DNA from: Candidatus Poribacteria bacterium
GTDB lineage: Bacteria > Poribacteria > WGA-4E > PCPOR2b
DNA length: 64,000 bases
Reading direction: 5' to 3'
Assembly (NCBI GenBank): GCA_965215015.1
Contig: OZ244042.1
Coordinates: 4,896,001 to 4,960,000, forward strand
In this document: positions 37,771-60,679 of the stretch, piece after piece
Layout of the letters: each line of letters opens with the position of its first letter
How positions within the stretch are numbered: position 1 is the stretch's first letter
The notes under the pieces: generated by a model
Seen by the model: only the letters and a program-made list of their open reading frames with translations
The model's database searches: none
What the model was told of the DNA's origin: nothing
Translations under genes and position numbers: made by a program

Positions 37771-40152
37771 GTGAAACACCTGAGATTTTTCCTAGCCGTA
37801 TCATTGCCCCTCGGCATTCTCGCTGCCATATCCATATCTGTCGATGCACGCCCACTAGACCCAGGGTTACATAGTGCCATTCGGTCCGCCCGAAAATATA
37901 TCAATCCCAAGTCAAGTTACGTCCCCAGCGAAATTGAAAAGTGTTTTACAGACACCTTCAACACCCTCGCCCGAAACTGGGATCGGCTGCCAGCAATCTA
38001 TCAGCGCGAGTTTCAGGGGATTTTCCTGCGCCCGGGGCAGCCCGGTAGCCCCTACAGTTCCGTCAATTTGCCAAAGAAGTTCGATACCCTCCACTTTCGA
38101 TTCCACTACACGACTGTCGGCCCGCACGCGCCACCGCTTGAAGATGTCAATCCAATGAACGGGGTGCCGGATTACGTTGATATGTGTGCCGAGGCACATG
38201 AAAAATCCTTCCATGTCGAGGTTGACCTGATGGGCTTTAAGCGACCCTTTGACGATTTTTGGGTCGCAGAAAACGGCGGCAATCATAAATACGATGTATA
38301 CCTATTTCAGTTTCCGGCACTCGGTTTTACAACAACTGATTGGTATAATGGGCGGGTACGCCCGACCGTCGCGACTTTTGGCCCCTATTTTGCCCTAAAT
38401 ACCCGTTTGTACGACTATTTTGGCAAGTTAGAGGGTATCCGATACATGGAAACAACCGCTGCCCATGAATTACTGCACGGGATTCAGTTTGCCTACAACG
38501 CACGGATGCCGGGTTGGTTTATGGAGGCTTCAGCGACATGGATTGAGTCGAAAGTATACGATGGTGGACGGGTGGACGACCTCGACGATATCCCAGATCC
38601 TGACGAAATGGGTGAGACCGATGCCTATGACTATTACACCAGACAGCTTGGCATTTTTTTAGATCAGCCTGACATTGCTCTCGACAGTCGCGTCGGTTTG
38701 CACGAATATGCAGCGGTAATCTGGGTGTTTTACATGGCAGAGCGATTCGATGTCGATATTGTCCGGCAGTTTTATGGGGATGCAACCAGAGGCTCTTACC
38801 GCGAATTTGGTAACTTTTTCAATGTCTTTGCCGACCATGGTACAACGCTAGTTGAAGCGTTTAAGACATTTACCGAGTGGAACTACTTTACTCATAGCCG
38901 TGATGATGGGAAACACTATTTCAATGGGCATCGTTTCCCGCCGGTCGCCATTCATCCGCACGATGTACATAACGCCTATCCTGTTCGCGTTGATTTCGAT
39001 TCAGAGGCGATGCCAGAGCACTTCTCGGCACGCTATATTGTTTTTGAGCCTATCCCCGGCGTTGTGATGAATGAATTCGCAATCAAAGTTGATGGCGCCG
39101 ACATCGCCCCAATTGACATGAGTTCCCTCAGTCTTACAGACCGAAACCCAATTCAGGAAGAATTGAATCGACTCAATAATTTTGGCTTGCGCGGTTGGGG
39201 TGCAAAGTTTATCGTTGAAAAGCGGGACGGAACGCACGAAGTCCGAGAAGCGTTCACTTACCAGCGTTCTCAGGAAGGGCAAATCACATTCAACGATTTC
39301 GGGGGTGATATTAAGAAGATTACGCTCATCCTGATTAATGTGCATCCGGATGTCGAGCAGGTCATTATCCCCGGCGGAGACTATTTTGGCGGTGCTGTAA
39401 GCTATATGGCAGGGCGTCCACCCGCCGGGACCCTTTCGACCCCCACCGTCTCCCAGGAGGACGACGCTAGCGTGCGTGTACAGTGGCAGCTTGAAAATTT
39501 GAGCGATATTCGTGAGGTGGTTATCGTCCGAAAGCGATATACATCGTTGATTGAAACCGATGACCCGCAGCCATTCCAGACCGCCGCGGAAGTGCTGAAC
39601 GCAGCAGATCGGGATGACAATGGCATTCCCAACGATGACATCAACATCGTCGGACGGGTCAACGCAACGGACACACACTTTCAAGACACGACGATATTTC
39701 AAGATATTGATGTAGAGGATAACCGTTTCGATCCACAGGATACCCGCTACTTTTATGCTGTTGTGCCCGTTGATGCGATTGGCATCATGGGCACGCCGAG
39801 CATTGACCCAAACGGTATCACCCCTGTCTTTAACCCGTTAGCTATCCCCGCCGCTCCGATGCAGACTCGGCTACTCCAAAGTTACCCAAATCCGTTCAAT
39901 CCAGAGGTTTGGATCCCTTACGAGTTAGGAGCGGATGCCTCCGTATCAGTTGAAATCTACAATATATCAGGGCAGTTGGTACGGACATTGCCAATCGGTA
40001 TGAGAAAGCGTGGACAGTATATCGCTAAGGATAAAGCCGTCTACTGGGATGGGCGTACCCAGTTGGGAGAGCGAGCTGCCAGCGGTGTCTACTTCTATGT
40101 GCTGAAAGCTGGCGATTATGTCTCCATGCGGAAGATGGCGATTCTGAAGTAG
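37771..40152 (+). CDS. Secreted putative metalloprotease (MXAN_6640-like, HExxH) with C-terminal FlgD-Ig/T9SS-like domain
   Basis: Signal peptide, NGVPDYVD, TAAHELLHGIQFAY, WFMEASATW; C-terminal QSYPNPFNPEVWIPY...ASGVYFY. Confidence 0.82.
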   Translation: MKHLRFFLAVSLPLGILAAISISVDARPLDPGLHSAIRSARKYINPKSSYVPSEIEKCFTDTFNTLARNWDRLPAIYQREFQGIFLRPGQPGSPYSSVNLPKKFDTLHFRFHYTTVGPHAPPLEDVNPMNGVPDYVDMCAEAHEKSFHVEVDLMGFKRPFDDFWVAENGGNHKYDVYLFQFPALGFTTTDWYNGRVRPTVATFGPYFALNTRLYDYFGKLEGIRYMETTAAHELLHGIQFAYNARMPGWFMEASATWIESKVYDGGRVDDLDDIPDPDEMGETDAYDYYTRQLGIFLDQPDIALDSRVGLHEYAAVIWVFYMAERFDVDIVRQFYGDATRGSYREFGNFFNVFADHGTTLVEAFKTFTEWNYFTHSRDDGKHYFNGHRFPPVAIHPHDVHNAYPVRVDFDSEAMPEHFSARYIVFEPIPGVVMNEFAIKVDGADIAPIDMSSLSLTDRNPIQEELNRLNNFGLRGWGAKFIVEKRDGTHEVREAFTYQRSQEGQITFNDFGGDIKKITLILINVHPDVEQVIIPGGDYFGGAVSYMAGRPPAGTLSTPTVSQEDDASVRVQWQLENLSDIREVVIVRKRYTSLIETDDPQPFQTAAEVLNAADRDDNGIPNDDINIVGRVNATDTHFQDTTIFQDIDVEDNRFDPQDTRYFYAVVPVDAIGIMGTPSIDPNGITPVFNPLAIPAAPMQTRLLQSYPNPFNPEVWIPYELGADASVSVEIYNISGQLVRTLPIGMRKRGQYIAKDKAVYWDGRTQLGERAASGVYFYVLKAGDYVSMRKMAILK

Positions 40153-41546: not shown

Positions 41547-42377
41547 ATGAGCCTACCCATTATGCAGCCATTACAATTCATTAAAAAGAAGATTAAGCAA
41601 TTATTTTACGTCCTCTATCAGAAACGCCTTCAGCGGGAGGCGAGCCAATGGCAAATCCCTTATCATATCGGAATTATCTTGGACGGGAACCGCCGGTACG
41701 CGAAAACGGAAGGCTTTTTTGATGTCGCTAAACGGCAGTACGGACACTCCGAAGGAGGGGATAAGCTAGAGGAAGTCCTCCATTGGTGCGACGAATTGGG
41801 CGTCAAGATTGTCTCAATCTGGATCTGTTCCCTTGATAACTTCGTCAATCGCGAAGAGGAGGAAGTGGCGGAAATCTTCAATGTCATTGAAACAAAGATG
41901 CGATCGCTGCTCACCATCGAAGGACTCCACACCAATCAGATTAAGGTACGTCCCATGGGAGAACTGGAGTTACTGCCGCCAAGTCTCCAAGAAGCTATTC
42001 GCGATGTGGAGGAAGCGACAAAAAACTACGATAAATTTATCCTCAACGTCGCTGTGGCTTACGGTGGACGCGAGGAAATCGTCGAAGCGTTTCGGCGTTA
42101 CCTAAAATCGGAATTGAGGGAAGGCAAAGCACCGGACCAGATAGCATCGGAACTGAGTGCGGATAAGATTACCACACATCTCTACACCTCCAATCTCCCC
42201 GACCCAGATCTGATTATCCGAACCAGCGGCGAGATTCGACTCAGCGGCTTCATGCTCTGGCAAAGTGCGTATTCAGAATACTACTTCTGTGATACCTATT
42301 GGCCCGGTTTCAGGAAAATCGACTTCCTGCGGGCTATCCGGGACTATAGCCACCGGGAACGACGGTTCGGAAGATAG
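41547..42377 (+). CDS. uppS: cis-isoprenyl diphosphate synthase (UppS family)
   Basis: HIGIILDGNRRYA, AYGGREEI, PDLIIRTSGEIRLSGF; true start may be ATG 41562. Confidence 0.92.
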   Translation: MSLPIMQPLQFIKKKIKQLFYVLYQKRLQREASQWQIPYHIGIILDGNRRYAKTEGFFDVAKRQYGHSEGGDKLEEVLHWCDELGVKIVSIWICSLDNFVNREEEEVAEIFNVIETKMRSLLTIEGLHTNQIKVRPMGELELLPPSLQEAIRDVEEATKNYDKFILNVAVAYGGREEIVEAFRRYLKSELREGKAPDQIASELSADKITTHLYTSNLPDPDLIIRTSGEIRLSGFMLWQSAYSEYYFCDTYWPGFRKIDFLRAIRDYSHRERRFGR

Positions 42378-42618
42378 GCGACACGCACATACGAAAGAAA
42401 AACATCCCCCCAAGCGGAAGGAAGGGATAGCAACCAGGGGAGAGGCAATCTTAATTAGGTTCGTAGTAGCGCAATTCATTGCGCGTGAGAGATGGCAACC
42501 AGGGGAGAGCCACCCTTAATTGGGTTTGTAGTAGCGCAATTCATTGCGCGTCAGGGAGGGCAACCGGTGGGAGAGGCAAGACCCTATTGTCTCATGAAAC
42601 ATTACGCCCAGCACCCCC

Positions 42619-43569
42619 TCAGTGCGGTAATAAGGTGGCTTTCATCTCCCCCCAGTACTGTGGGAGCAGCCCCGGTTGAGAAGGGACAGACAGACGTGGA
42701 TTCCATTCCCGCCCCGGAACATCCGCACCCGGATTATCGGTCAACTGTATCAGCTGCTTGTCAACCAAACCGAAACGGTAGATATTCCATACCCCATCCG
42801 TTTGACCAGAAAAGAGTATCGAATCCCCATCAGCAGAGAACATTGCAACATCAAAAGCCATCCGTGGAACCGGCACTCTCACCGTCTTGAACACCTTCTG
42901 CCGTCCTGCTGGGTGCAGTGTAGCAATCACCGGGAACGAACTGTTGACACTCCAATCAACGGCTTCCGTGTATAAAATCCGATTTCCCCCCGGTGACCAG
43001 TCTCCCAAAAACATCCCTGTATTCGGTTTCCGTTCAGAAACCTTCCACTGGCCTGTGCCATCTATACGGATAACATCAATATCTACACCTGATTCAAAGA
43101 GAATCCATTCCCCATCCGGCGACCATCTCGGTTTTGAGGCAAACGGTAAGTCTGTTATCTGCTTAACATTGCTACCATCGGCATCCATTATGAACAGATT
43201 AACCATCTGGTCTTCGTTGCGGTTGTGATTACTACGAAACACAATCTGATTTCCGTCAGGAGACCAGTCAGGATAACCATCAATTGCCGGCCGCCGGGTG
43301 AGATTGCGCTGATTGCTACCATCGGCATCCATTACATATACCTCCCAATTTCCATCGCGTTTGCTATCGAACGCAATTTGTCGTCCGTTAGGGGACCAGA
43401 CAGGGACGGCATCACTCGCTTCGTTAAAGGTCAGTCGTGTCTGGTTGGTTCCGTCCGAGTTCATGGTGTAGATCTCGGCGTTGCCATCTCGCTTGGAGTA
43501 AAACACAATTTTGCCCTGAAGGGAGCTCGTGGCAAGCCACAGACAAGCCACGAGCAAAGAAACGCGCAT
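42619..43569 (-). CDS. Secreted TolB-like (PD40) beta-propeller, copy A1
   Basis: Signal peptide; PxWSPxGxxIxF repeats; LLPQYWGEMK tail. Confidence 0.88.
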   Translation of the reverse strand: MRVSLLVACLWLATSSLQGKIVFYSKRDGNAEIYTMNSDGTNQTRLTFNEASDAVPVWSPNGRQIAFDSKRDGNWEVYVMDADGSNQRNLTRRPAIDGYPDWSPDGNQIVFRSNHNRNEDQMVNLFIMDADGSNVKQITDLPFASKPRWSPDGEWILFESGVDIDVIRIDGTGQWKVSERKPNTGMFLGDWSPGGNRILYTEAVDWSVNSSFPVIATLHPAGRQKVFKTVRVPVPRMAFDVAMFSADGDSILFSGQTDGVWNIYRFGLVDKQLIQLTDNPGADVPGREWNPRLSVPSQPGLLPQYWGEMKATLLPH

Positions 43570-43824
43570 AAGACCTCCTTTAATCTATTTCAAAGAAATT
43601 ATCCCTTAATTGGGTTCGTAGTAGTGCAATTCATTGCACGTCAGGGAGGGCAACAGGGGGGGGAGAGGCAAGGCCCTATGGCTTGTGTTGCACTCATTCT
43701 TTACATGAGCGAAAACGGTATCCCGTCCCGATGCCGTTGTTTCATGAAACATTACGGCACCGGGACGGGATATTGCTACGAGCATCATAACTGGGACCCT
43801 GTTGCATTACGGCACATCTACCCC

Positions 43825-44775
43825 TCAGTGCGGTAATAAGGCAGATTTAATCTCCCCCCAATGCTTTGGAGCCAACCCCTGCGGTGAAACCGGCAAGCGC
43901 GGATTCCATTCGTGGGGAGAACTATCTTTGGCAGGAGAATCGGTCAACTGAAGGAGTTGACGGTCTCGGAGACGGAAACGGTAGACATCCCAGTTCCCCC
44001 CTTCCTTTCTACCGGCAAAGAGGATCGACTTCCCATCGGCACCCCAATCGGCGGCAGTCGAATCCATCTTCGGTATTGGCACCGGCTCACGTTTTTCCGG
44101 CCACAACGTCGCAATAATTATGGTTGAGTTTTTCACCGAGTCGTTGATGGAAGCCTTATACAGAATCTGTGTGCCATCCGGAGACCACCCGCCCAAAAAC
44201 ATCCCTGCCTCGGGAATAGGTTTGCTCACCCGCCGCCGTTTGGTGCCGTCGGCGTTTATCACATAAATTTGCCTCCGTTGATCTATTATTCCTCCAAAGG
44301 CGATTCTCTCCCCGTTAGGAGACCACTTCGGGGCGACGGCAAACTCTAGCTGTGTAACCTGTCTCACGTTACCGCCATCGGCATCCATCACAAAAATATT
44401 GAGATCGTGAGCATCACCGCTGTCCCGATCGCTCGTGAAGGCAATCTGTGAACCATCGGGCGACCAGTCAGGCGAGCTATCAAATGCCGGGTGCTGAGTC
44501 AGGTTCGTCTGGTTACCCCCATCGGCATCCATGACATAAAGCTCCTGGTTGCCATCCCGTTCGCTGCAAAAGACGATTTGCCGCCCGTTGGGGGACCAGG
44601 CGGGCGCAAAATCACCACCCGTCTGGTTATGCGTTAATCGTGTTTCACCTTTCCCGTCAGAACGCATCATGTAGATTTCAGTACGTCCATCCCGATGCGA
44701 ATGAAACACGATTTTACCTTGGGCGTTGCTTACGCTTAGCCAGAGACTGAGGGATATCGTTAAGAAACGCATCAT
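43825..44775 (-). CDS. Secreted TolB-like beta-propeller, divergent copy B
   Basis: PAWSPNGRQIVF and PDWSPDGSQIAF repeats; HWGEIKSALLPH tail. Confidence 0.88.
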   Translation of the reverse strand: MMRFLTISLSLWLSVSNAQGKIVFHSHRDGRTEIYMMRSDGKGETRLTHNQTGGDFAPAWSPNGRQIVFCSERDGNQELYVMDADGGNQTNLTQHPAFDSSPDWSPDGSQIAFTSDRDSGDAHDLNIFVMDADGGNVRQVTQLEFAVAPKWSPNGERIAFGGIIDQRRQIYVINADGTKRRRVSKPIPEAGMFLGGWSPDGTQILYKASINDSVKNSTIIIATLWPEKREPVPIPKMDSTAADWGADGKSILFAGRKEGGNWDVYRFRLRDRQLLQLTDSPAKDSSPHEWNPRLPVSPQGLAPKHWGEIKSALLPH

Positions 44776-45183
44776 TCCTCCTCTATTGTATTCTAAATGG
44801 GTGCTCTACTTCCACTTTTAGTTGATGAAGTAAGCTTTCCGCGGAAGCTTCGCGAATCCAAAAAAGTAGGCGCATATACGAAAGAAAAACATCAACCGAT
44901 TAACAGCGCAAGAAACGATGGGTCATGTGAAAAGAAAGTGCAAAGCACGAAGAGAAGGCCCCCTTCGTACCCCCTAACCCTCCGCAAGCGATGGGAAATT
45001 TGCAAGCTTGGGGAGAGCCACCCTTAATTGGGTTCGTAGTAGCGCAATTCATTGCGCGTCAGGGAGGGCAACCGGTGGGAGAGGCAAGCCCCTATGGCTG
45101 CTGTTGCACTCATTCTTTCCATGAGCGAAAACGGTATCCCGTCCCGATGCCGTTGTCTCATGAAACATTACGGCACAGCTCCC

Positions 45184-46134
45184 TCAGTGCGGTAATAAGG
45201 GGGCTTTAATCTCCCCCCAGTACTGTGGGAGCAGCCCCTGTTGCGAAGGGACAGACAGACGGGGATTCCATTCCCGCCCCGGAACATCCGCACCCGGATT
45301 ATCGGTCAACTGTATCAGCTGCTTGTCAACCAACCCGAAACGGTAGATATTCCATACCCCATCCGTTTGACCAGAAAAGAGTATAGATTCCCCATCAGCC
45401 GAGAACATTGCGACCTTAAAAGGCCTCCGTGGAACCGGCACTCTCACCGTCTTGAACACCTTCTGCCGGCCTGCTGGGTGCAGTGTAGCCATCACCGGGA
45501 ACGAACTGTTGACACTCCAATCAACGGCTTCCGTATATAAAATCCGATTTCCACCCGGTGACCAGTCTCCCAAAAACATCCCTGTATTCGGTTTCCGTTC
45601 AGAAACCTTCCACTGTCCTGTGCCATCTATACGGATAACATCAACATCTACCCCTGATTCAAAGAGAATCCATTCCCCATCCGGCGACCATCTCGGTTTT
45701 GAGGCAAACGGTAAGTGGGTTATCTGCTTAACATTGCTACCATTGGCATCCATTATGAAAAGATTAATCATCTGGTCTTCGTTACCGTTGTGATTGCTAT
45801 CAAACACAATCTGATTTCCGTCAGGAGACCAGTCAGGATAAACATCAATTGCCGGCCGACGGGTGAGATTGCGCTGATTGCCACCATCGGCATCCATTAC
45901 ATATACCTCAGCGTTCCCATCTCGATAACTATGGAACGCAATCTGGCGACCGTTAGGGGACCAAACGGGGGTGGAATCCCTCGCCTCGTTAAAGGTCAGT
46001 CGTGTCTGGTTGGTTCCGTCCGAGTTCATGGTGTAGATCTCGGCGTTGCCATCTCGCTTGGAGTAAAACACAATTTTGCCCCAAAGGGGGCTCGTGACCA
46101 GCCAAAGGCTCGCCACGAGCAAAGAAAGGCGCAT
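45184..46134 (-). CDS. Secreted TolB-like beta-propeller, copy A2
   Basis: 316 aa, near-identical to A1/A3/A4/A5. Confidence 0.88.
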   Translation of the reverse strand: MRLSLLVASLWLVTSPLWGKIVFYSKRDGNAEIYTMNSDGTNQTRLTFNEARDSTPVWSPNGRQIAFHSYRDGNAEVYVMDADGGNQRNLTRRPAIDVYPDWSPDGNQIVFDSNHNGNEDQMINLFIMDANGSNVKQITHLPFASKPRWSPDGEWILFESGVDVDVIRIDGTGQWKVSERKPNTGMFLGDWSPGGNRILYTEAVDWSVNSSFPVMATLHPAGRQKVFKTVRVPVPRRPFKVAMFSADGESILFSGQTDGVWNIYRFGLVDKQLIQLTDNPGADVPGREWNPRLSVPSQQGLLPQYWGEIKAPLLPH

Positions 46135-46332
46135 AAAACCTCCTTCAGTCTATTTCAAAGAAATTATCCATTAATTGGGTGCGTAGTAGCGCGATTCATT
46201 GCGCGTCAGGGAGGGCAACCGGTGGGAGAGGCAAGCCCCTATGGCTGCTGTTGCACTCATTCTTTCCATGAGCGAAAACGGTATCCCGGCCCGATGCCGT
46301 TGTCTCATGAAACATTACGGCCCAGTGCCCCC

Positions 46333-47283
46333 TCAGTGCGGTAATAAGGGGGCTTTCATCTCCCCCCAGTACTGTGGGAGCAGCCCCTGTTGAGAAGGGA
46401 CAGACAGACGTGGATTCCATTCATGGGGACCGGCATCCGCCCCCGGATTATCGGTCAACTGTATCAGCTGCTTGTCAACCAACCCGAAACGGTAGATATT
46501 CCATACCCCATCCGTTTGACCAGAAAAGAGTATCGAATCCCCATCAGCCGAGAACATTGCGACCTTAAAAGGCCTCCGTGGAACCGGCACTCTCACCGTC
46601 TTGAACACCTTCTGCCGGCCTGCTGGGTGCAGTGTAGCAATCACCGGGAACGAACTGTTGACATGCCAATCAACGGCTTCCGTGTATAAAATCCGATTTC
46701 CCCCCGGCGACCAGTCTCCCAAAAACATCCCTGTATTCGGTTTTCGTTCAGAAACCTTCCACTGGCCTGTGCCGTCTATACGGATAACATCAATATCTAC
46801 CCCTGATTCAAAGAGAATCCACTCCCCATCCGGCGACCATCTCGGTTTTGAAGCGAACGGTAAGTCTGTTATCTGCTTAACATTGCTACCATCGGCATCC
46901 ATTATGAAAAGATTAAGCATCTGGTCTTCGTTGCGGTTGTGATTGCTATCAAATACAATCTGATTTCCGTCAGGAGACCAGTCAGGATAAACATCAATTG
47001 CCGGCCGCCGGGTGAGATTGCGCTGATTGCCACCATCGGCATCCATTACATATACCTCAGCGTTCCCATCTCGATAACTATGGAACGCAATCTGTCGTCC
47101 GTTAGGGGACCAAACAGGGGTGGAATCCCTCGCCTCGTTAAAGGTCAGTCGTGTCTGGTTGGTTCCGTCCGAGTTCATGGTGTAGATCTCGGCGTTGCCA
47201 TCTCGCTTGGAGTAAAACACAATTTTGCCCCAAAGGGGGCTCGTGGCAAGCCACAGACAAGCCACGAGCAAGGAAAGGCGCAT
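46333..47283 (-). CDS. Secreted TolB-like beta-propeller, copy A3
   Basis: 316 aa, near-identical to the other A copies. Confidence 0.88.
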   Translation of the reverse strand: MRLSLLVACLWLATSPLWGKIVFYSKRDGNAEIYTMNSDGTNQTRLTFNEARDSTPVWSPNGRQIAFHSYRDGNAEVYVMDADGGNQRNLTRRPAIDVYPDWSPDGNQIVFDSNHNRNEDQMLNLFIMDADGSNVKQITDLPFASKPRWSPDGEWILFESGVDIDVIRIDGTGQWKVSERKPNTGMFLGDWSPGGNRILYTEAVDWHVNSSFPVIATLHPAGRQKVFKTVRVPVPRRPFKVAMFSADGDSILFSGQTDGVWNIYRFGLVDKQLIQLTDNPGADAGPHEWNPRLSVPSQQGLLPQYWGEMKAPLLPH

Positions 47284-47324
47284 AAGACCTCCTTTAGTCT
47301 ATTTCAAAGAAATTATCCATTTCA

Positions 47325-47383
47325 AAGGAATTATCCCTAGTATTCATTCTGACCTCAGGGACAGGATCCTCGGCGATACCGAT
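47325..47383 (-). pseudogene. Duplicate of the 3' end of the secreted-protein gene 50870-51373
   Basis: Matches 50882-50941 (ATTATCCCTAGTATTCATTCTGACCTCAGGGACAGGATCCTCGGCGATACCGAT). Confidence 0.85.
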
Positions 47384-47387
47384 AAGG

Positions 47388-47482
47388 GGCTTCATGCTCC
47401 GGCAAAGTGCGTACTCAGAATACTATTTTTGCGATACCTATTGGCCCTGCTTCAGAAAGATTGACTTCCTCCGAGCAATCCG
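47388..47482 (+). pseudogene. Displaced fragment of the uppS 3' end
   Basis: Aligns to 42246-42340 with 13 mismatches in 95 nt; translates [31 protein letters not shown]. Confidence 0.9.
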
Positions 47483-47528
47483 TCGGCGTGGAGTTATCCC
47501 ACCTTTATAGGCAGAGTGCGTAGCGTCC

Positions 47529-48509
47529 TTAGGGTCGCAATACTTCAGATCTAATCTCCCCCCAGAACAGAGAGAGTGACTGCCGGGGCCTGACAGACAA
47601 TCGAGGATTCCATTCATGGGGACCGGCATCCGGCCCCGGATTATCGGTCAACTGTATCAATTTCCGGTCGGTCAGATGAAAACGATAGATATTCGAGTCG
47701 TTATTTCTCTTCCCCGAAAAAAGGATGGACTTCCCATCCCCAGCGAAGGTAGTAGTTTGGAATGGCAGCCGTGGCACCGGCACCCGGTACCATCGTTTCA
47801 CCTTCCTTCGGCCGACTAAGTTCAACGTGGCAATGACCGCAAAGGAATTCTTAAGGTTGGAGTCAACCGTCTCCTTATACAGGATCCGTTTCCCATCGGG
47901 AGACCACCCGCCCAAATGCATCCGCGTGTAAGGTCGCGGTTTTGACACCTTGAAACGACCGGTGCCATTGGCGTTGATGACAAAAATCTCCCGGCCATTC
48001 CCTATAACCCCTTCAAAAGCCATCCGTTTCCCATCCGGCGACCATTTGGGTGTTGAAGCAAATTCTAAGTCTGTAATCTGCTTGATGTTGCTCCCATCGG
48101 CGTCCATCACGAAAATGTTGAAATTTTCGTTCCGAGTGCTAGTAAACGCAATCTGTGAACTGTTGGGATGCCAATCTGCATAATTATCCAGGCCGGGATA
48201 ATGGGTCAACCTCCGTTGGTTTCCCCCATCCGCGTCCATCACATAAATCTCCGCGTTTGACTCCCCTCCATGCTTATGCGGGTCCTTATGATCATCGCGG
48301 AAGCTATGGAACGCAATCTGTCGTCCGTTGGGGGACCAGACAGGGGCAACATCTGTGGCTTCGTTAAACGTAAGTCGCACCTGACCGTTACCACTGGAAT
48401 CCATCATGTAGATTTCGTAATTTCCAGCCTGCTTGGAATAAAACACAATTTTGCCCCAAAGGGGGCCCGTGGCAAGCCACAGACAAGCCACGAGCAAGGA
48501 AAGGCGCAT
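47529..48509 (-). CDS. Secreted TolB-like beta-propeller, divergent copy C
   Basis: A-type signal peptide with divergent core; FWGEIR tail. Confidence 0.88.
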   Translation of the reverse strand: MRLSLLVACLWLATGPLWGKIVFYSKQAGNYEIYMMDSSGNGQVRLTFNEATDVAPVWSPNGRQIAFHSFRDDHKDPHKHGGESNAEIYVMDADGGNQRRLTHYPGLDNYADWHPNSSQIAFTSTRNENFNIFVMDADGSNIKQITDLEFASTPKWSPDGKRMAFEGVIGNGREIFVINANGTGRFKVSKPRPYTRMHLGGWSPDGKRILYKETVDSNLKNSFAVIATLNLVGRRKVKRWYRVPVPRLPFQTTTFAGDGKSILFSGKRNNDSNIYRFHLTDRKLIQLTDNPGPDAGPHEWNPRLSVRPRQSLSLFWGEIRSEVLRP

Positions 48510-48705
48510 AAGACCTCCTTTAGTCTATGTGAAAGAAATTATCCATTAATTGGGTGCGTAGTAGCGCAATTCATTGCGCGTCAGGGAGGGCAACCGGGGG
48601 GAGAGGCAAGCCCCTATGGCTGCTGTCGCACTCATTCTTTCCATGAGCGAAAGCGGTATCCCGGCCCGATGCTGTTGTCTCATGAAACATTACGGCACAG
48701 CTCCC

Positions 48706-49656
48706 TCAGTGCGGTAATAAGGGGGCTTTAATCTCCCCCCAGTACTGTGGGAGCAGCCCCTGTTGCGAAGGGACAGACAGACGGGGATTCCATTCCCGTC
48801 CCGGAACATCCGCCCCCGGATTATCGGTCAACTGTATCAGCTGCTTGTCAACCAACCCGAAACGGTAGATATTCCATACCCCATCCGTTTGACCAGAAAA
48901 GAGTATCGAATCCCCATCAGCAGAGAACATTGCAACATCAAAAGTCATCCGTGGAACCGGCACTCTCACCGTCTTGAATACCTTCTGCCGGCCTGCTGGG
49001 TGCAGTGTAGCAATGACCGGGAACGAACTGTTGACATGCCAATCAACGGCTTCCGTGTATAAAATCCGATTTCCACCCGGTGACCAGTCTCCGAGAAACA
49101 TCCCTGTATTCGGTTTCCGTTCAGAAACCTTCCACTGCCCTGTGCCATCTATACGGATAACATCAATATCTATCCCTGATTCAAAGAGAATCCACTCCCC
49201 ATCCGGCGACCATCTCGGTTTTGAGGCAAAGGGTAAGTGGGTTATCTGCTTAACATTGCTACCATCGGCATCCATTATGAAAAGATTAATCATCTGGTCT
49301 TCGTTACGGTTGTGATTGCTATCAAACACAATCTGATTTCCGTCAGGAGACCAGTCAGGATAACCATCAATTGCCGGCCGCCGGGTGAGATTGCGTTGAT
49401 TGCCACCATCGGCATCCATTACATATACCTCAGCGTTCCCATCTCGATAACTATGGAACGCAATCTGGCGACCGTTAGGGGACCAAACGGGGGTGGAATC
49501 CCTCGCCTCGTTAAAGGTCAGTCGTGTCTGGTTGGTTCCGTCCGAGTTCATGGTGTAGATCTCGGCGTTGCCATCTCGCTTGGAGTAAAACACAATTTTG
49601 CCCCAAAGGGGGCTCGTGGCAAGCCACAGACAAGCCACGAGCAAGGAAAGGCGCAT
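48706..49656 (-). CDS. Secreted TolB-like beta-propeller, copy A4
   Basis: 316 aa, near-identical to the other A copies. Confidence 0.88.
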   Translation of the reverse strand: MRLSLLVACLWLATSPLWGKIVFYSKRDGNAEIYTMNSDGTNQTRLTFNEARDSTPVWSPNGRQIAFHSYRDGNAEVYVMDADGGNQRNLTRRPAIDGYPDWSPDGNQIVFDSNHNRNEDQMINLFIMDADGSNVKQITHLPFASKPRWSPDGEWILFESGIDIDVIRIDGTGQWKVSERKPNTGMFLGDWSPGGNRILYTEAVDWHVNSSFPVIATLHPAGRQKVFKTVRVPVPRMTFDVAMFSADGDSILFSGQTDGVWNIYRFGLVDKQLIQLTDNPGADVPGREWNPRLSVPSQQGLLPQYWGEIKAPLLPH

Positions 49657-49908
49657 AAGACCTCCTTTAATCTATGTGAAAGAGATTATCCATTAATTGG
49701 GTTCGTAGTAGCGCAATTCATTGCGCGTCAGGGAGGGCAACCGGGGGGAGAGGCAGTCCCCTATGGCTTCTATTGCACTCATTCTTTACATGAGCGAAAA
49801 CGGCATCCCGTCCCGATGCCGTTGTTCCATGAAACATTACGGCACCGGGACATGATGCTGCTACGAGCCTCATAACTGGGCCCGGTTGCATTACGGCCCA
49901 GCGACCCC

Positions 49909-50859
49909 TCAGTGCGGTAATAAGGGGGCTTTCATCTCCCCCCAGTACTGTGGGAGCAGTCCCTGTTGAGGGGGGACGGACAGACGGGGATTCCATTCCC
50001 GCCCCGGAACATCCGCCCCCGGATTATCGGTCAACTGTATCAGCTGCTTGTCGACCAACCCGAAACGGTAGATATTCCATACCCCATCCGTTTGACCAGA
50101 AAAGAGTATCGAATCCCCATCAGCAGAGAACATTGCAACATCAAAAGCCATCCGTGGAACCGGCACTCTCACCGTCTTGAACACCTTCTGCCGGCCTGCT
50201 GGGTGCAGTGTAGCAATCACCGGGAACGAACTGTTGACACTCCAATCAACGGCTTCCGTATATAAAATCTGATTTCCACCCGGTGACCAGTCTCCCAGAA
50301 ACATCCCTGTATTCGGTTTCCGTTCAGAAACCTTCCACTGTCCTGTGCCATCTATGCGGATAACATCAATATCTACCCCTGATTCAAAGAGAATCCACTC
50401 CCCATCCGGCGACCATCTCGGTTTTGAGGCAAAGGGTAAGTCTGTTATCTGCTTAACATTGCTACCATCGGCATCCATTATGAACAGATTAACCATCTGG
50501 TCTTCGTTACGGTTGTGATTGCTATCAAACACAATCTGATTTCCGTCAGGAGACCAGTCAGGATAACCATCAATTGCCGGCCGACGGGTGAGATTGCGCT
50601 GATTGCTACCATCGGCATCCATTACATATACCTCCCAATTTCCATCGCGTTTGCTATCGAACGCAATTTGTCGTCCGTTAGGGGACCAAACAGGGGCGGC
50701 ATCACTCGCTTCGTTAAAGGTCAGTCGTGTCTGGTTGGTTCCGTCGGAGTTCATGGTGTAGATCTCGGCGTTGCCATCTCGCTTGGAGTAAAACACAATT
50801 TTGCCCCAAAGGGGGCTCGTGGCAAGCCACAGACAAGCCACGAGCAAAGAAAGGCGCAT
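49909..50859 (-). CDS. Secreted TolB-like beta-propeller, copy A5 (promoter-proximal)
   Basis: 316 aa; AAGGAGG RBS 10 nt after the upstream gene's stop. Confidence 0.88.
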   Translation of the reverse strand: MRLSLLVACLWLATSPLWGKIVFYSKRDGNAEIYTMNSDGTNQTRLTFNEASDAAPVWSPNGRQIAFDSKRDGNWEVYVMDADGSNQRNLTRRPAIDGYPDWSPDGNQIVFDSNHNRNEDQMVNLFIMDADGSNVKQITDLPFASKPRWSPDGEWILFESGVDIDVIRIDGTGQWKVSERKPNTGMFLGDWSPGGNQILYTEAVDWSVNSSFPVIATLHPAGRQKVFKTVRVPVPRMAFDVAMFSADGDSILFSGQTDGVWNIYRFGLVDKQLIQLTDNPGADVPGREWNPRLSVPPQQGLLPQYWGEMKAPLLPH

Positions 50860-50869
50860 AGGACCTCCT

Positions 50870-51373
50870 TTAGTTTATGCGAAAGAAATTATCCCTAGTA
50901 TTCATTCTGACCTCAGGGACAGGATCCTCGGCGATACCGATGAGATTGATTCGGGTGTAAGCATCAATATAAAAACGACCCCTTGGCAGTTCTCTAATAT
51001 CAGCTTCATGTGTTTTCTCTATGAAGGCACTCGAGTCATTATTTATACCCCACTCAGGGACTGTGACTATTTCGGTAGTGCCTTCAGGCGGTTTTTTCTT
51101 CACAATCATTTCTTCACTCGGCTGAAGTCGCATCACTCGATGAGTAAACTCGTAAGTTAGGTCAACTGCCTCATCGCTATCATTTTCGACGAAAAACTGG
51201 TGATAGCTATAGGTATGGGTCGCAGATTTATAGAGGTTACTGACGGTTACATCCCAGTATACCTCTTCGTTGTACCCATCAGTTGTTTCCAAGGCATAAA
51301 CCCCTACCACGGAAATCAATAGAACCGTCATAGCGATAAAAAGCGTTGATTTGCATCTTTGTGAAGTCAACAT
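50870..51373 (-). CDS. Small secreted hypothetical protein (about 167 aa, beta-rich)
   Basis: GAGGAGG RBS before ATG 51373; signal peptide LFIAMTVLLISVVGVYA. Confidence 0.75.
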   Translation of the reverse strand: MLTSQRCKSTLFIAMTVLLISVVGVYALETTDGYNEEVYWDVTVSNLYKSATHTYSYHQFFVENDSDEAVDLTYEFTHRVMRLQPSEEMIVKKKPPEGTTEIVTVPEWGINNDSSAFIEKTHEADIRELPRGRFYIDAYTRINLIGIAEDPVPEVRMNTRDNFFRIN

Positions 51374-51524
51374 GAGAACTCCTCCTCTGATTGGTAAGGA
51401 ATGCTTTGGCATCCCATTGGGTGAGAACCGTCAACTCTGAGTTGATTCACATATCCGATGAATATGTGGTTCTCTTTTTCACCAAGTATTCACGGTGTTG
51501 CCAACTTGGTTTCACCCTTTACGA

Positions 51525-51541
51525 AGCAAGACCCATGCCAA
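51525..51541 (-). promoter_or_regulatory. sigma54 (-24/-12) promoter
   Basis: Minus strand TTGGCATGGGTCTTGCT with canonical GG-N10-GC spacing, downstream of a bEBP gene. Confidence 0.8.
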
Positions 51542-51619
51542 CATCCTAAATTATGCCCCCGCTTCAGACATGATGCGGGTTTGAGAGGAGGCCTGCCACC
51601 GGCTCTCGTGTGGCAAAAC

Positions 51620-51717
51620 GGGCGGAAAATCGCACACAAAATTGCACATCATCCTACATCACCCTAACTATAGACTAAAGATAATGGGTGTGCGGTTGAT
51701 GTGCGAAAAATCGCACA
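51620..51717. promoter_or_regulatory. Candidate upstream activator sequences for the bEBP
   Basis: Palindrome TGTGCGA-AAAA-TCGCACA at 51700-51717 plus related half-sites AAATCGCACA and AATTGCACA at about 51627-51648. Confidence 0.6.
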
Positions 51718-51764
51718 CTTCGGATGCTGCTAGTCAAAGCTATAATAAAACTATCCTGTTTCTG

Positions 51765-52715
51765 TCATCGGATGCCATATTTTTTTAACCGGCGGGATAA
51801 AGCATGTCGGCTCAATCCAAGTTGCTGGGCGGTTTTAGTAATGTTACCTTGATTCGCCGCCAAGGCGCGACGAATCTGCTCCTGCTCGGCAAGCATTTCC
51901 TCGACCGGGGCTGGTAACGGCCTCGCTGTGCCAATCCCTGTTCGTGAAAAAGAAAACATCTCAACGTCAGGAAAGTGAAAATGGAGGTGTTTGGGTTGAA
52001 TCGCCCCCCCTTCACTTACAATAAACGCATGCTCAATCATGTTCCTCAATTCACGCACATTGCCCGGGAAGGCGTATTCCTTCAAAGCCTCGGCAGCTTT
52101 AGGAGTCAATGGCGGGGTTGATACTCCCATTTGAGTCGCAACCGCACTCAGTTGGTATTTAGCAAGGAGCAGAATATCCTCTTTCCTTTCGCGTAGGGGT
52201 GCAATCTCAATCAAAATTCCAGCCAAGCGAAAGTAGAGGTCTGCCCGAAATAGTCCTGCCTCGACCTTAGCCTTGAGGTCCGCATTGGTGGCCGCTATTG
52301 TCCGAATATCTACCTTTTTACTCTGCGTTGCACCGATTGGTGTGATGACACTATTGTTCAGTGCCCGTAGGAGTTTAACCTGGGTTTCGATTGGCATGTC
52401 ACCGACCTCGTCGAGAAAGAGTGTCCCCTTGTCAGCACGTTCAAAGCAGCCTATCTGATCCGCTATTGCTCCAGTGAATGCACCACGGACATGGCCGAAG
52501 AAGATGGACTCTGCCAGTTCAAAAGGAATCGCACCACAATTGACGTCCACAAATGGTGCCGATGCCCGGGGCCCTCTAGCACGAATGGATCGGGCAACCA
52601 GTTCTTTACCGACGCCGGTTTCCCCGGTAATTAAAACCGAAGTACTGTCGTTGTTGCGGAGTTGGCGAATGGTTGTCTGAATGGCTCGCATAGTATCACT
52701 GTCACCAAGTAACAT
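51765..52715 (-). CDS. sigma54-dependent enhancer-binding protein (AAA+ and Fis HTH, no N-terminal sensor domain)
   Basis: GETGVGKELVA, GAFTGA, LFLDEVG, FRADLYFRL, PGNVREL, C-terminal HTH; in-frame TGA 4 codons upstream of the ATG. Confidence 0.92.
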   Translation of the reverse strand: MLLGDSDTMRAIQTTIRQLRNNDSTSVLITGETGVGKELVARSIRARGPRASAPFVDVNCGAIPFELAESIFFGHVRGAFTGAIADQIGCFERADKGTLFLDEVGDMPIETQVKLLRALNNSVITPIGATQSKKVDIRTIAATNADLKAKVEAGLFRADLYFRLAGILIEIAPLRERKEDILLLAKYQLSAVATQMGVSTPPLTPKAAEALKEYAFPGNVRELRNMIEHAFIVSEGGAIQPKHLHFHFPDVEMFSFSRTGIGTARPLPAPVEEMLAEQEQIRRALAANQGNITKTAQQLGLSRHALSRRLKKYGIR

Positions 52716-53214
52716 AAAATAATCTCACTTTCTATTTTATTGAAAACCAGTTCTATATCCTAAAAGGGTACAAGAAAAGGTAGTCACCTTGCAAGTCAAA
52801 ATTCGCCCGCAAGTGTGCTACCAATACGAAAACAACTTGAATCATGTTAAGAAATCGTGCAATGGTACGTAGGTTGGATTGAATGGAAATCCATGGAAAA
52901 TTACACGCAGAAAAGGCACTTTGGAAGATTCATATCATTGGTTCAGTATGGACGTCTCCGATGATTAAACCTAAACATTAACTTTTGGATAGTAGCTTTC
53001 TTAACTGGTAGGAGTTACGCCCTTGAGTTGGTAGTCGCGCAATTCAACCCGCGTCTTTAAGGGAGTCGGCATACGCCGTATGCCGTAAGCCCCCTTCCCC
53101 CCTCCGCTTGTAAATTCCCCCCGCTTGCGGGGGGCTAGGGGGGTTCTTTCTTAGAGGGCAGAGCGTGCCTACTACTGTAGAATGAACTCGGTGTATCGAC
53201 ACACGCCAAGAAGC

Positions 53215-53997
53215 CTACCGGCGATGTGCAATTTCGATGAGCGTATCACCGACAATTTTGTAGCGGTGAGAATCTAGACGCTCAACATCCGCCCGTTTGG
53301 ATTTCGCATCAACCGCTTTTTCTTCCCACATCTCTGTGATAAATTCGTACGGTGGATCGATAGTAAACGGTTCGATTTTCCCAATTTTTTCCATCGCCAT
53401 CCGACCACCTACCTGCAAGAGTTTTCTGGCTTTCACGGGCGCCAGCGACAACGCACTGGTCTGCGAGAGCCCCTTCTTCGTCGTGACCGACACGATGTTC
53501 GGCACGTACCGTTGAGTCTCAGCAATTGCGGTATCGTCCCCACTGATGAATACCGTTGGGATACCGAATGAGCCTGCGACTGCGGCGTTAAACCCAATTT
53601 CCCCTACCAACTCCCCATTAAGCCAGCAGTTGGCAATTGTGCGCGAGCTCCAGCTATGACAGAGGACCCCGCGTTCCGTGTTGCCCATCGAATGATGTCC
53701 GTAAAGAAAAAACGCGTCAAACGACCCATTCAACCCCCAAGGTGCTGAAATTGGACGGCCAATGATCATCTGTACCTCCGGGTGCATCAGTTCATAGTCA
53801 ATTCCCCCAGGCCCATGACCGTCTAAGAACCAGACCTCCTGCGCCCCACCCTCCAATACACCATCAACGAGCGCATTCACCTCCAATGTTGAGAGCCGTT
53901 TCGCTTGCTCATAGTACTTTGCATCGCTATAGGTCTGCTGGTGAAAGTCAACGACACCGGCAGCACCTTCCAAGTCACCGAGTATAAATATTCGCAT
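53215..53997 (-). CDS. M55 family D-aminopeptidase (DppA-like)
   Basis: DLEG, DGHG, YGHH, VLCHS, GEIGFNA, SGDD. Confidence 0.9.
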   Translation of the reverse strand: MRIFILGDLEGAAGVVDFHQQTYSDAKYYEQAKRLSTLEVNALVDGVLEGGAQEVWFLDGHGPGGIDYELMHPEVQMIIGRPISAPWGLNGSFDAFFLYGHHSMGNTERGVLCHSWSSRTIANCWLNGELVGEIGFNAAVAGSFGIPTVFISGDDTAIAETQRYVPNIVSVTTKKGLSQTSALSLAPVKARKLLQVGGRMAMEKIGKIEPFTIDPPYEFITEMWEEKAVDAKSKRADVERLDSHRYKIVGDTLIEIAHRR

Positions 53998-54448
53998 GTC
54001 CCCCTCCTTTTAATCCCAAAAATTCCTTGACAACTGACTGTATCTGTTTCATAATAGATTTGTGACGCAATCGTGCAACAGGAACCGATTTTTCAAGAAA
54101 AAACTCGGGGTCTCTTCGTATTTTGCACTCTCTTTTTACATGAGCCACTTGTAAAATGCCTACAAAGAGAGTTGGGCGATTACAGGCCCGTAAGGCGTTG
54201 TGGTAAATTTACAATTGGCTATTATACCCTTGTGCGTTGATTTGTCAATCTTTTTGCTGGACCTAGGACTTACGCAGTTGAATGCGTAAAGCCAATTCCC
54301 GATACGTTATCGGGGCGGGAAAAACCAAACCTCCTCTAACTCCCCGCCAGGGGGGGAGAACTATACGAACGCCCGACTACGTAACTCCTATGGACCTTAA
54401 AAGAGCTATTCTGAACCGATTTGCAGATTGTATTATGGAGGCTAGATT

Positions 54449-55246: not shown

Positions 55247-55630
55247 GCCTCATGTTCAAAGAAAGTGCCCCTTCGTACCCCCCAAGCCCCCCTGCAAGCG
55301 GAAGGAGGGAGCACAACCGGGGGAGAAGTCAGCTTAATTAGGTTCGTAGTAGCGCGATTCATTGCGCGTCAGGGAGCACAACCGGGGGAGCGGCAATCTT
55401 AATTGGGTTCGTAGTAGCGCAATTCATTGCGCGTCAGGGAGCACAACCGGGGGAGAGACACCCTTAATTAGGTTCGTAGTAGCGCAATTCATTGCGCGTC
55501 AGGGAGGGCAAACAAGGGAGAAGTCAGCTTAATTAGGTTCGTAGTAGCGCAATTTATTGCGCGTCAGGGAGCACAACCAAGGGAGAGGCAAGGCCCTATG
55601 GCTGCTGTCGCACTCATTCTTTCCATGAGC
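55247..55630. mobile_element. MITE-like element with four 65-bp REP-containing tandem units
   Basis: GTAGTAGCGCAATTCATTGCGC-type motif at 55346, 55411, 55476 and 55541; ends CTCATGTTCAAAGAAAGTG and CACTCATTCTTTCCATGAG. Confidence 0.75.
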
Positions 55631-60137: not shown

Positions 60138-60679
60138 GGCTCATATTAAAAGAAAGTGCAAAGCACGAAGAGAAGTGCCCCTTCGTACCCCCCAAGGCCC
60201 CCTAACCCCCCGCAAGCGAGGAGAGGGATGGCAACCAGGGGAGCGGCAATCTTAATTGGGTTTGTAGTAGCGCAATTCATCGCGCGTGAGAGAGGGCAAC
60301 CAGGGGAGAGCCACCCTTAATTGGGTTTGTAGTAGCGCAATTTATTGCGCGTCAGGGAGGACAACCGGGGGAGCGGCAATCTTAATTATGTTCGTAGTAG
60401 CGCAATTCATGGCGCGTCAGGAATGACAACCAGGGGAGAGACAATCTTAATTAAGTTTGTAGTAGTGCAATTCATGGCGCGTCAGGGAGGACAACCGGGG
60501 GAGCGACAAGCTTAATTGGGTTTGTAGTAGCGCAATTCATGGCGCGTCAGGGATGACAACCAGGGGAGAGACAATCTTAATTAAGTTTGTAGTAGTGCAA
60601 TTCATGGCGCGTCAGGAATGACAACCAGGGGAAGAGGCAAGGCCCTATGGCCTCTGTTACACCCATTCTTTATATGGGC
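60138..60679. mobile_element. MITE-like element with six 65-bp REP-containing tandem units
   Basis: GTAGTAG at 60264, 60329, 60394, 60459, 60524 and 60589; imperfect TIRs GGCTCATATTAAAAGAAAGTGCAA / TTACACCCATTCTTTATATGGGC. Confidence 0.75.

Follow-up and report, generated by a model that had tools for sequence, protein, structure and literature searches.

An Array of TolB-like Propeller Genes Behind a Predicted Sigma-54 Promoter in a Candidatus Poribacteria Chromosome

The Locus and Its Genes

The 64,000-nucleotide stretch considered here (positions 4,896,001 to 4,960,000 of contig OZ244042.1; below, the window, whose coordinates are used unless genome coordinates are indicated) belongs to the closed chromosome of a Candidatus Poribacteria bacterium of the sponge-symbiont type, a single 5.94-Mb contig. 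Its minus strand carries, at 42400-52715 and in the order of transcription, the gene of a sigma-54 activator, a 391-nt intergenic region, the gene of a small protein that we call S and seven genes of putatively exported propeller proteins, A7, A6, A5, A4, A3, A2 and A1. The elements that an earlier sequence-only reading had listed for this locus were all found where it had placed them or nearby. As argued below, the locus is probably a regulated, recently amplified operon for exported binding proteins that end in a common C-terminal tag, situated in a copy-number hot spot.

Five of the propeller genes, all of them on the minus strand, are near copies with 91-97% identity to A1, namely A7 (49909..50859, 10 nt after S), A6 (48706..49656), A4 (46333..47283), A3 (45184..46134) and A1 itself (42619..43569), the last gene of the array, which is convergent with uppS and 97% identical to A7. 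The other two, A5 (47529..48509, 326 aa, minus strand) and A2 (43825..44775, 316 aa, minus strand), are divergent paralogs with 53-61% identity to the near copies, A2 being a member of the other major clade of the family. All seven open reading frames (ORFs) are intact, and the three that were scanned against Pfam, A1, A2 and A5, match PD40 (PF07676) with E values of 1e-28 to 1e-33. The earlier count of seven intact genes, five near copies and two divergent ones, stands; only the lengths had to be amended, since A2 also has 316 residues and there are thus six products of 316 aa and one (A5) of 326 aa. It had also been proposed that each propeller gene has its own ribosome-binding site (RBS), and indeed a start codon, an RBS and an N-terminal leader were found in 7/7. 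The initiation region, TAAAGGAGGTCTT-ATG, is common to every A gene but A2, which has GAGGAGGA.

The Activator and Its Presumed Target Promoter

The activator gene (51765..52715, minus strand) encodes a protein of 316 aa composed of an AAA+ domain, its lid and a Fis-type helix-turn-helix (HTH) domain. Pfam assigns Sigma54_activat (PF00158) to residues 3-169 (E 6.5e-61), followed by AAA_lid_14 and HTH_8 (E 2.3e-11), and both the GAFTGA motif and the Walker A sequence GETGVGKE are present in the translation. Since the sigma-54 interaction domain begins at residue 3, the protein has no sensor domain. The possibility that it is a truncated NtrC-type regulator was ruled out, as tblastn detected no remnant of a receiver domain upstream and the orthologs match the full length, 1-316. 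These orthologs, sensor-less and full-length with 70-78% identity, adjoin loci with the 5' leader, S and propellers in at least nine other genomes.

PspF and HrpR/HrpS are sensor-less bacterial enhancer-binding proteins, which consist of an AAA+ domain and a C-terminal HTH and have no N-terminal regulatory domain. The activator resembles them in having an AAA+ domain with GAFTGA, a C-terminal HTH and no regulatory domain, and it matches the pspF models below threshold. It is not, however, an ortholog of PspF (240 bits versus a cut-off of 444), and it differs from these regulators in sharing the direction of transcription with its presumed targets, which code for exported propellers. Neither a PspA-like nor an HrpV-like antagonist was identified, and no search was aimed at a PspA-like gene. 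The genome has rpoN (matches to PF04552 of 201 and 88 bits). It also encodes a second sensor-less activator paralog (genome 5403332-5404381, 349 aa, 53-57% identical), downstream of which the same strand has an ORF of 708 aa as well as small ones whose N-terminal leaders are hydrophobic.

The intergenic region between the activator and S contains two palindromes and a promoter, all read on the minus strand. The distal upstream activator site, TGTGCG-N6-CGCACA (51700..51717), lies ~170 nt upstream of the -24 element, and the proximal, imperfect palindrome, TGTGCG-N6-CGCCCG (51619..51636), lies ~90 nt upstream of it; the predicted sigma-54 promoter is TGGCAT-N5-TTGCT (-24/-12, 51525..51540). A strict pattern of this promoter has 62 matches in 5.94 Mb, four of which are located 120-128 nt upstream of (long) S ORFs, and in an alignment of 13 loci its GGCA and TT bases do not vary. 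Both palindromes are kept in the orthologous loci of other species, and in the genomes labeled G004, G014 and G009 the distal one has undergone a symmetric change of its half-sites, from TGTGCG/CGCACA to TGTCCG/CGGACA. A block directly before the -24 element is likewise kept in the orthologous loci, while upstream of the promoter paralogous loci diverge. The earlier proposal of a regulated unit made up of the activator, upstream sites, a sigma-54 promoter, S and the propellers is supported; the promoter, the leader and the palindromes are all conserved in the orthologous loci of other species. From the adjacency and the conserved sites we infer that the activator drives the promoter at 51525-51540.

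When the regions before the family's other arrays and before each internal gene of this one were scanned loosely for sigma-54 sites, none that convinced was found. A simple scan of the array for sigma-70 promoters and terminators returned repeated weak matches within coding sequence and only 7 terminator-like sites versus 11 expected.

The Conserved 5' Leader

The promoter is followed by a conserved 5' leader of ~140 nt (51374..51514, minus strand), whose start is placed by the geometry of the promoter and for which three hairpins are predicted. The 165-nt block of promoter and leader was found at 79-87% DNA identity in 10 of 15 other genomes of the same genus and in none of nine genomes from other genera. 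When the same species are compared, S does not exceed 47% identity and the propellers do not exceed 65%, i.e., less than the leader, and within the genome the four regions that extend from the promoter to the start of S are far more alike in DNA than their S proteins are in sequence. A consensus fold derived from the alignment of 13 loci consists of the three hairpins; the minimum free energy of the leader is -46.1 kcal/mol (z -2.96), 94% of the cells of the alignment are paired, and there are 4 compensatory pairs compared with 1.3 in shuffled alignments, 5 of 500 of which reach 4. This covariation is no more than suggestive, as the structure was derived from the same sequences.

A cmscan of 42300-53000 against Rfam at E<=1 gave no family for the leader or for the spacers between the genes; the only match was to a microRNA at 43712-43779, scored 30.5 bits versus 98 and attributable to chance. 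The GGA motifs of the leader brought CsrA to mind as a possible binder, but a search of the genome for its gene (PF02599) found none and the idea was dropped. A 180-aa version of the S ORF, reaching 51412, was also discarded: its extension, "MPKHS...", is the conserved leader read as protein, and a GGAGG RBS favors the start of the 167-aa form. Elsewhere in the chromosome, at genome 5669358-5669449, a copy of the promoter and of the first leader hairpin precedes an ORF for a signal-anchored product of 125 aa, behind which there is no propeller gene.

The S Protein and Its Pairing With Propellers

The first gene of the operon (50870..51373, minus strand) encodes S, a 167-aa protein that is predicted to be signal-anchored (or secreted) and to fold as a beta-sandwich. 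It has no match in Pfam or NCBIfam. In its structural model, which has a predicted local distance difference test score (pLDDT) of 84, a helix at residues 5-25 precedes the beta-sandwich, and the matches to this fold are generic ones, to ApaG/Ig-like domains, an intracellular proteinase inhibitor and accessory domains of glycosidases, with template modeling scores (TM) of at most 0.38. A look-up of the S ectodomain in the ESM Atlas gave no usable match, and a search of the genome contig collection with S alone returned no relative. Among 1.84 billion representative clusters, an exhaustive profile search found 95 with S-like members, and a word-based search found 8. In the same representative library, a protein of 3155 aa (P0027) contains seven stretches that match the N-terminal half of the S profile; Pfam gives it only a weak DUF317 match.

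The S profile finds 15 frames in the genome. In 14 cases a propeller gene on the same strand comes immediately afterwards, at a gap of -13 to +30 nt, and the remaining frame is upstream of a more distant PD40 gene. In other genomes, a comparison of the two match tables shows that 21 of 25 S matches have a listed propeller match immediately behind them. S occurs in 12 of 19 other genomes of the genus and in none of 21 from other genera of the same family or order. Judged from the sequences compared, S and the one or more propellers behind it form a pair that is fixed in a narrow lineage, and the largest set in the sample is that of this genome. Co-folding of a mature propeller with the S ectodomain gave a score of 0.07, with a mark of 0.32, and was counted neither for nor against this pairing.

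The Propellers and Their C-terminal Tag

The model of A1 (pLDDT 86.5) consists of a short N-terminal helix, a propeller that extends from residue 20 to ~290 and a disordered tail at 294-316. Its best matches in the PDB, found with Foldseek, are the propellers of TolB (1c5k, 2hqs, 2ivz), with a query-normalized TM of 0.73-0.74, a root-mean-square deviation of ~3 A over ~283 columns and 17% identity; the next matches are the propellers of S9 peptidases. The sequence-only reading had taken the proteins to be secreted, and their N-terminal hydrophobic leaders, together with the helices in the models, support export.

The conserved tail, ...EWNPRL.V.P.g..P..WGEIK..., ends all 31 members of the propeller family in this genome, including all seven encoded here; in A1, where it occupies residues 291-316 (42622..42699, minus strand) and reads ...PRLSVP..G.LP..WGE[IM]K..., its pLDDT is 34. 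In a scan of ORFs of at least 90 aa, the core of this tag, WGx[ILMV][KR] at no more than 10 residues from the C-terminus, was present in 69 ORFs versus ~6.8 expected under uniform placement, and 50 of the 69 are outside the propeller family. Ten picked from these 50 were scanned against Pfam: five match Laminin_G_3, three are Kelch propellers, one is a further PD40 protein, and one is without a match. The simplest inference is that the tag serves a shared step of export, anchoring or docking. The C-terminal domain of type IX secretion substrates (TIGR04183) and PEP-CTERM are alike in being conserved elements at the extreme C-terminus that are common to unrelated exported proteins. The tag of the propellers differs from them: it has ~20-25 residues, is predicted to be disordered and contains neither a transmembrane segment nor a basic tail or a hydrophobic stretch. 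In whole-protein scans at E<=0.01, no sorting-domain model of NCBIfam matches A1, A2 or A5, whose tails end in ...WGE[IM]K.{3,6}.

The likeness to TolB raises the possibility that the locus is an envelope-maintenance or stress regulon, in which periplasmic TolB-like proteins bind components of the envelope, a PspF-like activator is switched on under stress and the amplification provides dosage only. The propellers do share with TolB, their closest fold, the six-bladed PD40 propeller and an N-terminal export leader; the leader is of the Sec type only, S appears to be membrane-anchored, the activator has the architecture of PspF with a sub-threshold match to its models, and the array adjoins uppS, a gene of the cell-wall lipid carrier. 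However, the N-terminal alpha/beta domain of TolB is absent from the propellers, the matches of which cover only positions ~203-406 of the TolB profile TIGR02800 and score 146 bits (A1), 182 bits (A2) and 153 bits (A5), below the cut-off of 343. There are no tol or pal genes in the interval, where the neighbors are uppS, the activator and the dppA-like peptidase (a PspA-like gene, as mentioned, was not searched for). Moreover, a family of 31 copies is far above what envelope housekeeping would need, and the occurrence of the tag in Kelch and LamG lectin-like proteins points to outward-facing binders. An envelope regulon is for these reasons an unlikely explanation. The constant pairing with S and the extra conserved disordered tag also distinguish the propellers from TolB.

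The Propeller Family in the Genome and the Genus

Searches with tblastn and blastp found 31 full-length propeller paralogs at 12 loci of the genome, 46-67% identical to A1, A2 and A5, and many of these loci are tandem rows of 2-6 propeller genes. At a threshold of E<=1e-60, all 19 other genomes of the genus contain propeller matches, 1-16 per genome, and none of the 21 genomes from other genera of the same family or order does. Within this sample of 41 genomes, the S and propeller families appear to be restricted to the genus. A maximum-likelihood tree calculated for the 31 paralogs unites the five near copies in a single clade (100/100 support), places A5 beside three paralogs from genome 908-917 kb and puts A2 in the other major clade.

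Several of the paralogous loci have a regulatory context of their own. At genome 903000-921000 (locus L001), which is larger, genes for a histidine kinase and a receiver-AAA-HTH activator come before two cassettes of sigma-54 promoter, leader and S, before six propellers of two alternating types and before a further copy of the promoter only, at 907393-907480, which precedes a divergent S-like gene; a 3188-aa ORF lies downstream. In two other loci, L006 (2553-3182) and L007 (2254-2787), the gene of a sigma factor with sigma-70 region 4, similar to extracytoplasmic function factors, is located directly upstream of the S-propeller pair in place of a sigma-54 promoter; the S copy of L007 contains a TGA in frame and is possibly broken.

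The interval that holds the array can be followed in other species. It is bordered on one side by uppS (undecaprenyl diphosphate synthase; 41547..42377, plus strand; Pfam Prenyltransf, E 7.8e-75) and on the other, beyond the activator, by a gene of a dppA-like D-aminopeptidase (Peptidase_M55; 53215..53997, minus strand), and five members of the genus keep these flanks, with a 793-aa protein, a 310-aa protein and uppS on one side and the activator, the dppA-like peptidase and two more genes on the other. The flanking proteins are 68-97% identical in these five species, uppS being 93-95% identical; the 793-aa protein, encoded at 37771-40152 in the window, has a C-terminal FlgD_ig domain and is 86-88% conserved in the syntenic flank of other species. 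The interval contains one A5-like propeller (67%) in G004, two A2-like ones (81% and 61%) in G014, one in G002, an A5-like (72%) and an A2-like one (42%) in G009 and none in G015, apart from a 93-aa remnant. The locus had been called expandable, and this comparison of the interval between uppS and dppA across species bears it out, with 0, 1, 1, 2 and 2 propellers in the five others versus 7 here. In G015 and G002 the interval carries small exported or lipoprotein-like genes instead. The interval may accordingly be described as a variable cargo site under a conserved activator, in which A5 and A2 would be old residents, the five-copy clade being specific, within the sample, to the lineage of this genome.

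One exported family of ~170-230 aa, lipoprotein-like and recognizable by the motif YPEVPDDYPFP..W, occurs both in the activator-controlled interval of G015 and G002 and in the 904-919 kb locus of this genome; its members are located at 7679-9239 of L001 (genome 910678-912238), 5015-6773 of L134 and 6345-8097 of L130. Its distribution hints at regulators that stay the same while the exported cargo under their control changes.

History of the Array

The array retains a junction that points to the way it arose. Upstream of A4, on the minus strand, lies a remnant of the 3' end of S with its RBS (47284..47386), which corresponds to S residues 157-180 (83%), and the segment 47250-47386 is 82% identical to the 3' end of S and the start of A7 (50826-50944). 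This remnant abuts a fragment of the 3' end of uppS (47385..47482), 86% identical to 42243-42340. Because the uppS fragment abuts the S remnant, a tandem duplication of a segment reaching from inside uppS to inside S is indicated. About 20 nt of the 3' end of S and the same RBS are kept before the start codon of every unit but A2.

The near copies differ pairwise at 32-64 nucleotides and 9-27 residues, with a synonymous divergence (dS) of 0.09-0.18 and a ratio of nonsynonymous to synonymous divergence (dN/dS) of 0.14-0.33; by this ratio, all five are under purifying selection. Their site patterns are mosaic, switching partners along the genes, and the A5-type sequence at residues 284-287 of A4 points to a gene-conversion tract. 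Among the variable residues, 15 are in strands and 20 elsewhere, and in the whole family the entropy is 1.17 in strands versus 1.25 in loops. To call these genes "diversified", as had been done, is an overstatement for five copies that differ at 9-27 residues.

The spacers between the genes of the array are 196, 198, 245, 252, 255 and 408 nt long and are repeated. Five of them contain single units of a 65-nt element that looks like a family of repetitive extragenic palindromic (REP) elements (43592-43677, 45010-45095, 46157-46242, 48532-48617 and 49679-49764), and 2.4 tandem copies of the unit lie between A1 and uppS (42426..42579). The 30-nt core of the unit has 122 copies genome-wide (with no more than three mismatches), which form 74 clusters and are often in tandem. 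The "conserved repeat spacer" of the sequence-only reading is thus repeated between the genes, as claimed, but is not specific to the array; it consists of this genome-wide REP-like unit and of ordinary duplicated flank. Elsewhere in the window, the unit forms tandem arrays at 55306-55592 (4.4 copies) and 60224-60640 (6.4 copies), with the hairpin GCGCAAT..ATTGCGC. Tandem periods of 65, 79, 127 and 150 nt occur in the REP-like family, although the array with the 79-nt period, at genome 5334939-5335492, may be of another kind, for instance CRISPR-like. Three plus-strand ORFs of 203-212 aa (43225-43836, 45715-46344, 49237-49875) lie antisense to propeller genes and are repeated with them; most likely they are shadow frames of the repeated propellers rather than genes.

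In their duplication junction, shared unit boundaries, mosaic sites and copy-number variation between species, these genes resemble tandem paralog arrays that are shaped by unequal crossing-over and gene conversion. The mechanism is an ordinary one; the unusual features are how large the family is and the regulated setting in which the genes stand. The sequence-only reading had seen in the locus a new system organized like orphan-immunity or antigenic-variation arrays. This is not supported. The family has 31 members at 12 loci, of which the array is one; the array contains no silent cassette and shows dN/dS values of 0.14-0.33, and it is better regarded, on present sequence comparisons, as one locus of a family growing by ordinary duplication than as a new class of variation or immunity.

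Programmed variation would mean that a bank of cassettes recombines to change the expressed surface protein. The mosaic sites and the A5-type tract in A4, which testify to gene conversion, the intergenic repeats that could promote recombination and the different copy numbers of different species are all in line with it. Antigenic-variation and cassette systems, such as silent banks, diversity-generating retroelements and shufflons, are nevertheless distinguished by silent donors, a recombinase or a reverse transcriptase at the locus, and a diversity focused on a binding surface. Here, each of the seven copies has its own start codon, RBS and leader, and therefore none is a silent cassette; selection is purifying, and the residue differences are without a focus on loops; contigs from three studies agree in A2 and in the A5/A4 junction. 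An integrase or reverse transcriptase, which had been reported as not recognizable, is indeed not among the ORFs of the interval 42400-54000 (a genome-wide search for a distant enzyme was not made). We consider programmed variation very unlikely.

It is also highly improbable that the array is an immunity-like or defense locus, in which the propellers would be orphan immunity proteins or decoys for toxins or phages and S their cognate effector. The layout, in which one small gene leads a row of paralogs, does resemble that of orphan-immunity arrays. Yet PADLOC has no match for S or for any of the three propellers that were scanned, and in the activator it recognizes no more than the generic AAA-HTH part of RtcR-type models; S has no toxin-like domain or fold, the interval contains no toxin ORF and no secretion-system or Rhs/CDI (contact-dependent inhibition) genes, and S and the propellers carry export leaders, whereas immunity proteins are usually cytoplasmic.

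Reality of the Assembly

Fourteen public runs from nine studies hold a part of the stretch, stored as contigs. The contigs of runs X1, X5 and X6, from three studies, cover A2 and the region of the A5/A4 junction with 0 differences, and 47354-47804 or further is covered with 0 differences by contigs of three studies. A2 is represented by a 1342-nt contig with 0 differences in X1 and by a near-identical one in X6, where A2 differs at a few positions and a spacer has lost 42 nt. The near-identical repeats are broken into short contigs, as is expected for repeats. In X1, which may be the sample of origin, the depth of shared unitigs is 642-1345 versus 342-454 for unique ones, a 2-4-fold excess that is a weak hint only because depth is not copy number. 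That the assembler strung together strain variants of one or two genes is hardly credible: near-identical units of 1.15-1.2 kb are hard to assemble and short-read contigs fragment repeats, but the chromosome is one contig, the copies have distinct flanks (six spacer lengths of 196-408 nt) and one junction that is unique, contigs from three studies reproduce both this junction and the unique pieces, the depth of shared X1 unitigs points weakly the same way, and tandem arrays of the family exist at other loci and in other closed genomes.

Interpretation

We hold with moderate confidence that the locus is a regulated and recently amplified operon for tagged exported binding proteins, located in a copy-number hot spot. 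In its action, the sensor-less activator would bind the two palindromes and drive the sigma-54 promoter. The transcript would open with the conserved, structured leader, followed by S, as a small membrane-anchored beta-sandwich protein, and then by the TolB-type PD40 propellers. These would leave the cytoplasm by means of a Sec-type leader and carry the short disordered C-terminal tag, which, being common to Kelch and LamG proteins, probably marks a common step of export, anchoring or docking. As to its history, the sequence shows that a span from inside S to inside uppS was duplicated in tandem in one event, whereupon one paralog was amplified five-fold with gene conversion, and that purifying selection kept every copy functional. 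The benefit is likely to be dosage and a modest variety of a surface or periplasmic binder in the symbiont's dealings with its surroundings.

Several points weigh against this picture. The signal peptides of S and of the propellers were judged by eye, without a predictor. The covariation of the leader is thin, the 4 compensatory pairs being counted on a structure that was derived from those same sequences, and the leader may be a DNA site rather than an RNA element. Other arrays of the family are without a sigma-54 promoter, and several loci have no recognizable site; as two of these arrays have the gene of a sigma-70-type factor upstream, sigma-54 control is not a trait of the family. None of the 16 listed public runs is recorded as RNA. 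Finally, the exact count of the near-identical copies rests on the assembly and has no confirmation by spanning reads.

Beyond the first reading, the analysis adds the finding that the promoter and the ~140-nt leader together are better conserved between species than the genes behind them, the strict pairing of S with propellers and the disordered C-terminal tag that occurs also in exported Kelch and LamG proteins. It is tempting to go further. The cassette of promoter and leader, S and the tagged propellers may constitute an undescribed module of surface display or secretion, in which the tag would be a new sorting or docking signal for PD40, Kelch and LamG binders, S a membrane-side partner that passes the propellers on and the leader a second, post-transcriptional layer of control, with the hot spot tuning the dose and variety of host-facing binders. 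This extension is tentative, and as a whole we regard it as doubtful.

The propellers belong to the same class of exported binders, and come from the same phylum, as the "eukaryote-like" repeat proteins of sponge symbionts (WD40, PD40, TolB-like, Kelch and LamG-type). At the level of domain counts, PD40 was reported to be enriched in sponge microbiomes (PMC9531527), as was a TolB-like propeller entry (PMC5735121), and WD40 to be enriched in Poribacteria (PMC3909097); expression of WD40 proteins was linked to Tol domains (PMC5735121, itself citing another paper). The passages on these domain counts (PMC5735121, PMC3909097, PMC9531527) contain no description of the operon, of S and its pairing with propellers, of the tag, of the activator or of the sigma-54 promoter with its leader; the supplementary tables may list the genes.

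Poribacteria are uncultured, and so the regulation, export and expansion of the exported repeat proteins of sponge symbionts are largely obscure. The locus is a concrete, testable unit of this kind. It offers a defined activator with its candidate sites, promoter and leader, an obligate small partner and a short tag that extends across unrelated families of binders. It is also a clean natural example of the growth of a gene family, in which the duplication of a whole array was followed by five-fold amplification under purifying selection at a syntenic site that otherwise holds 0-2 copies.

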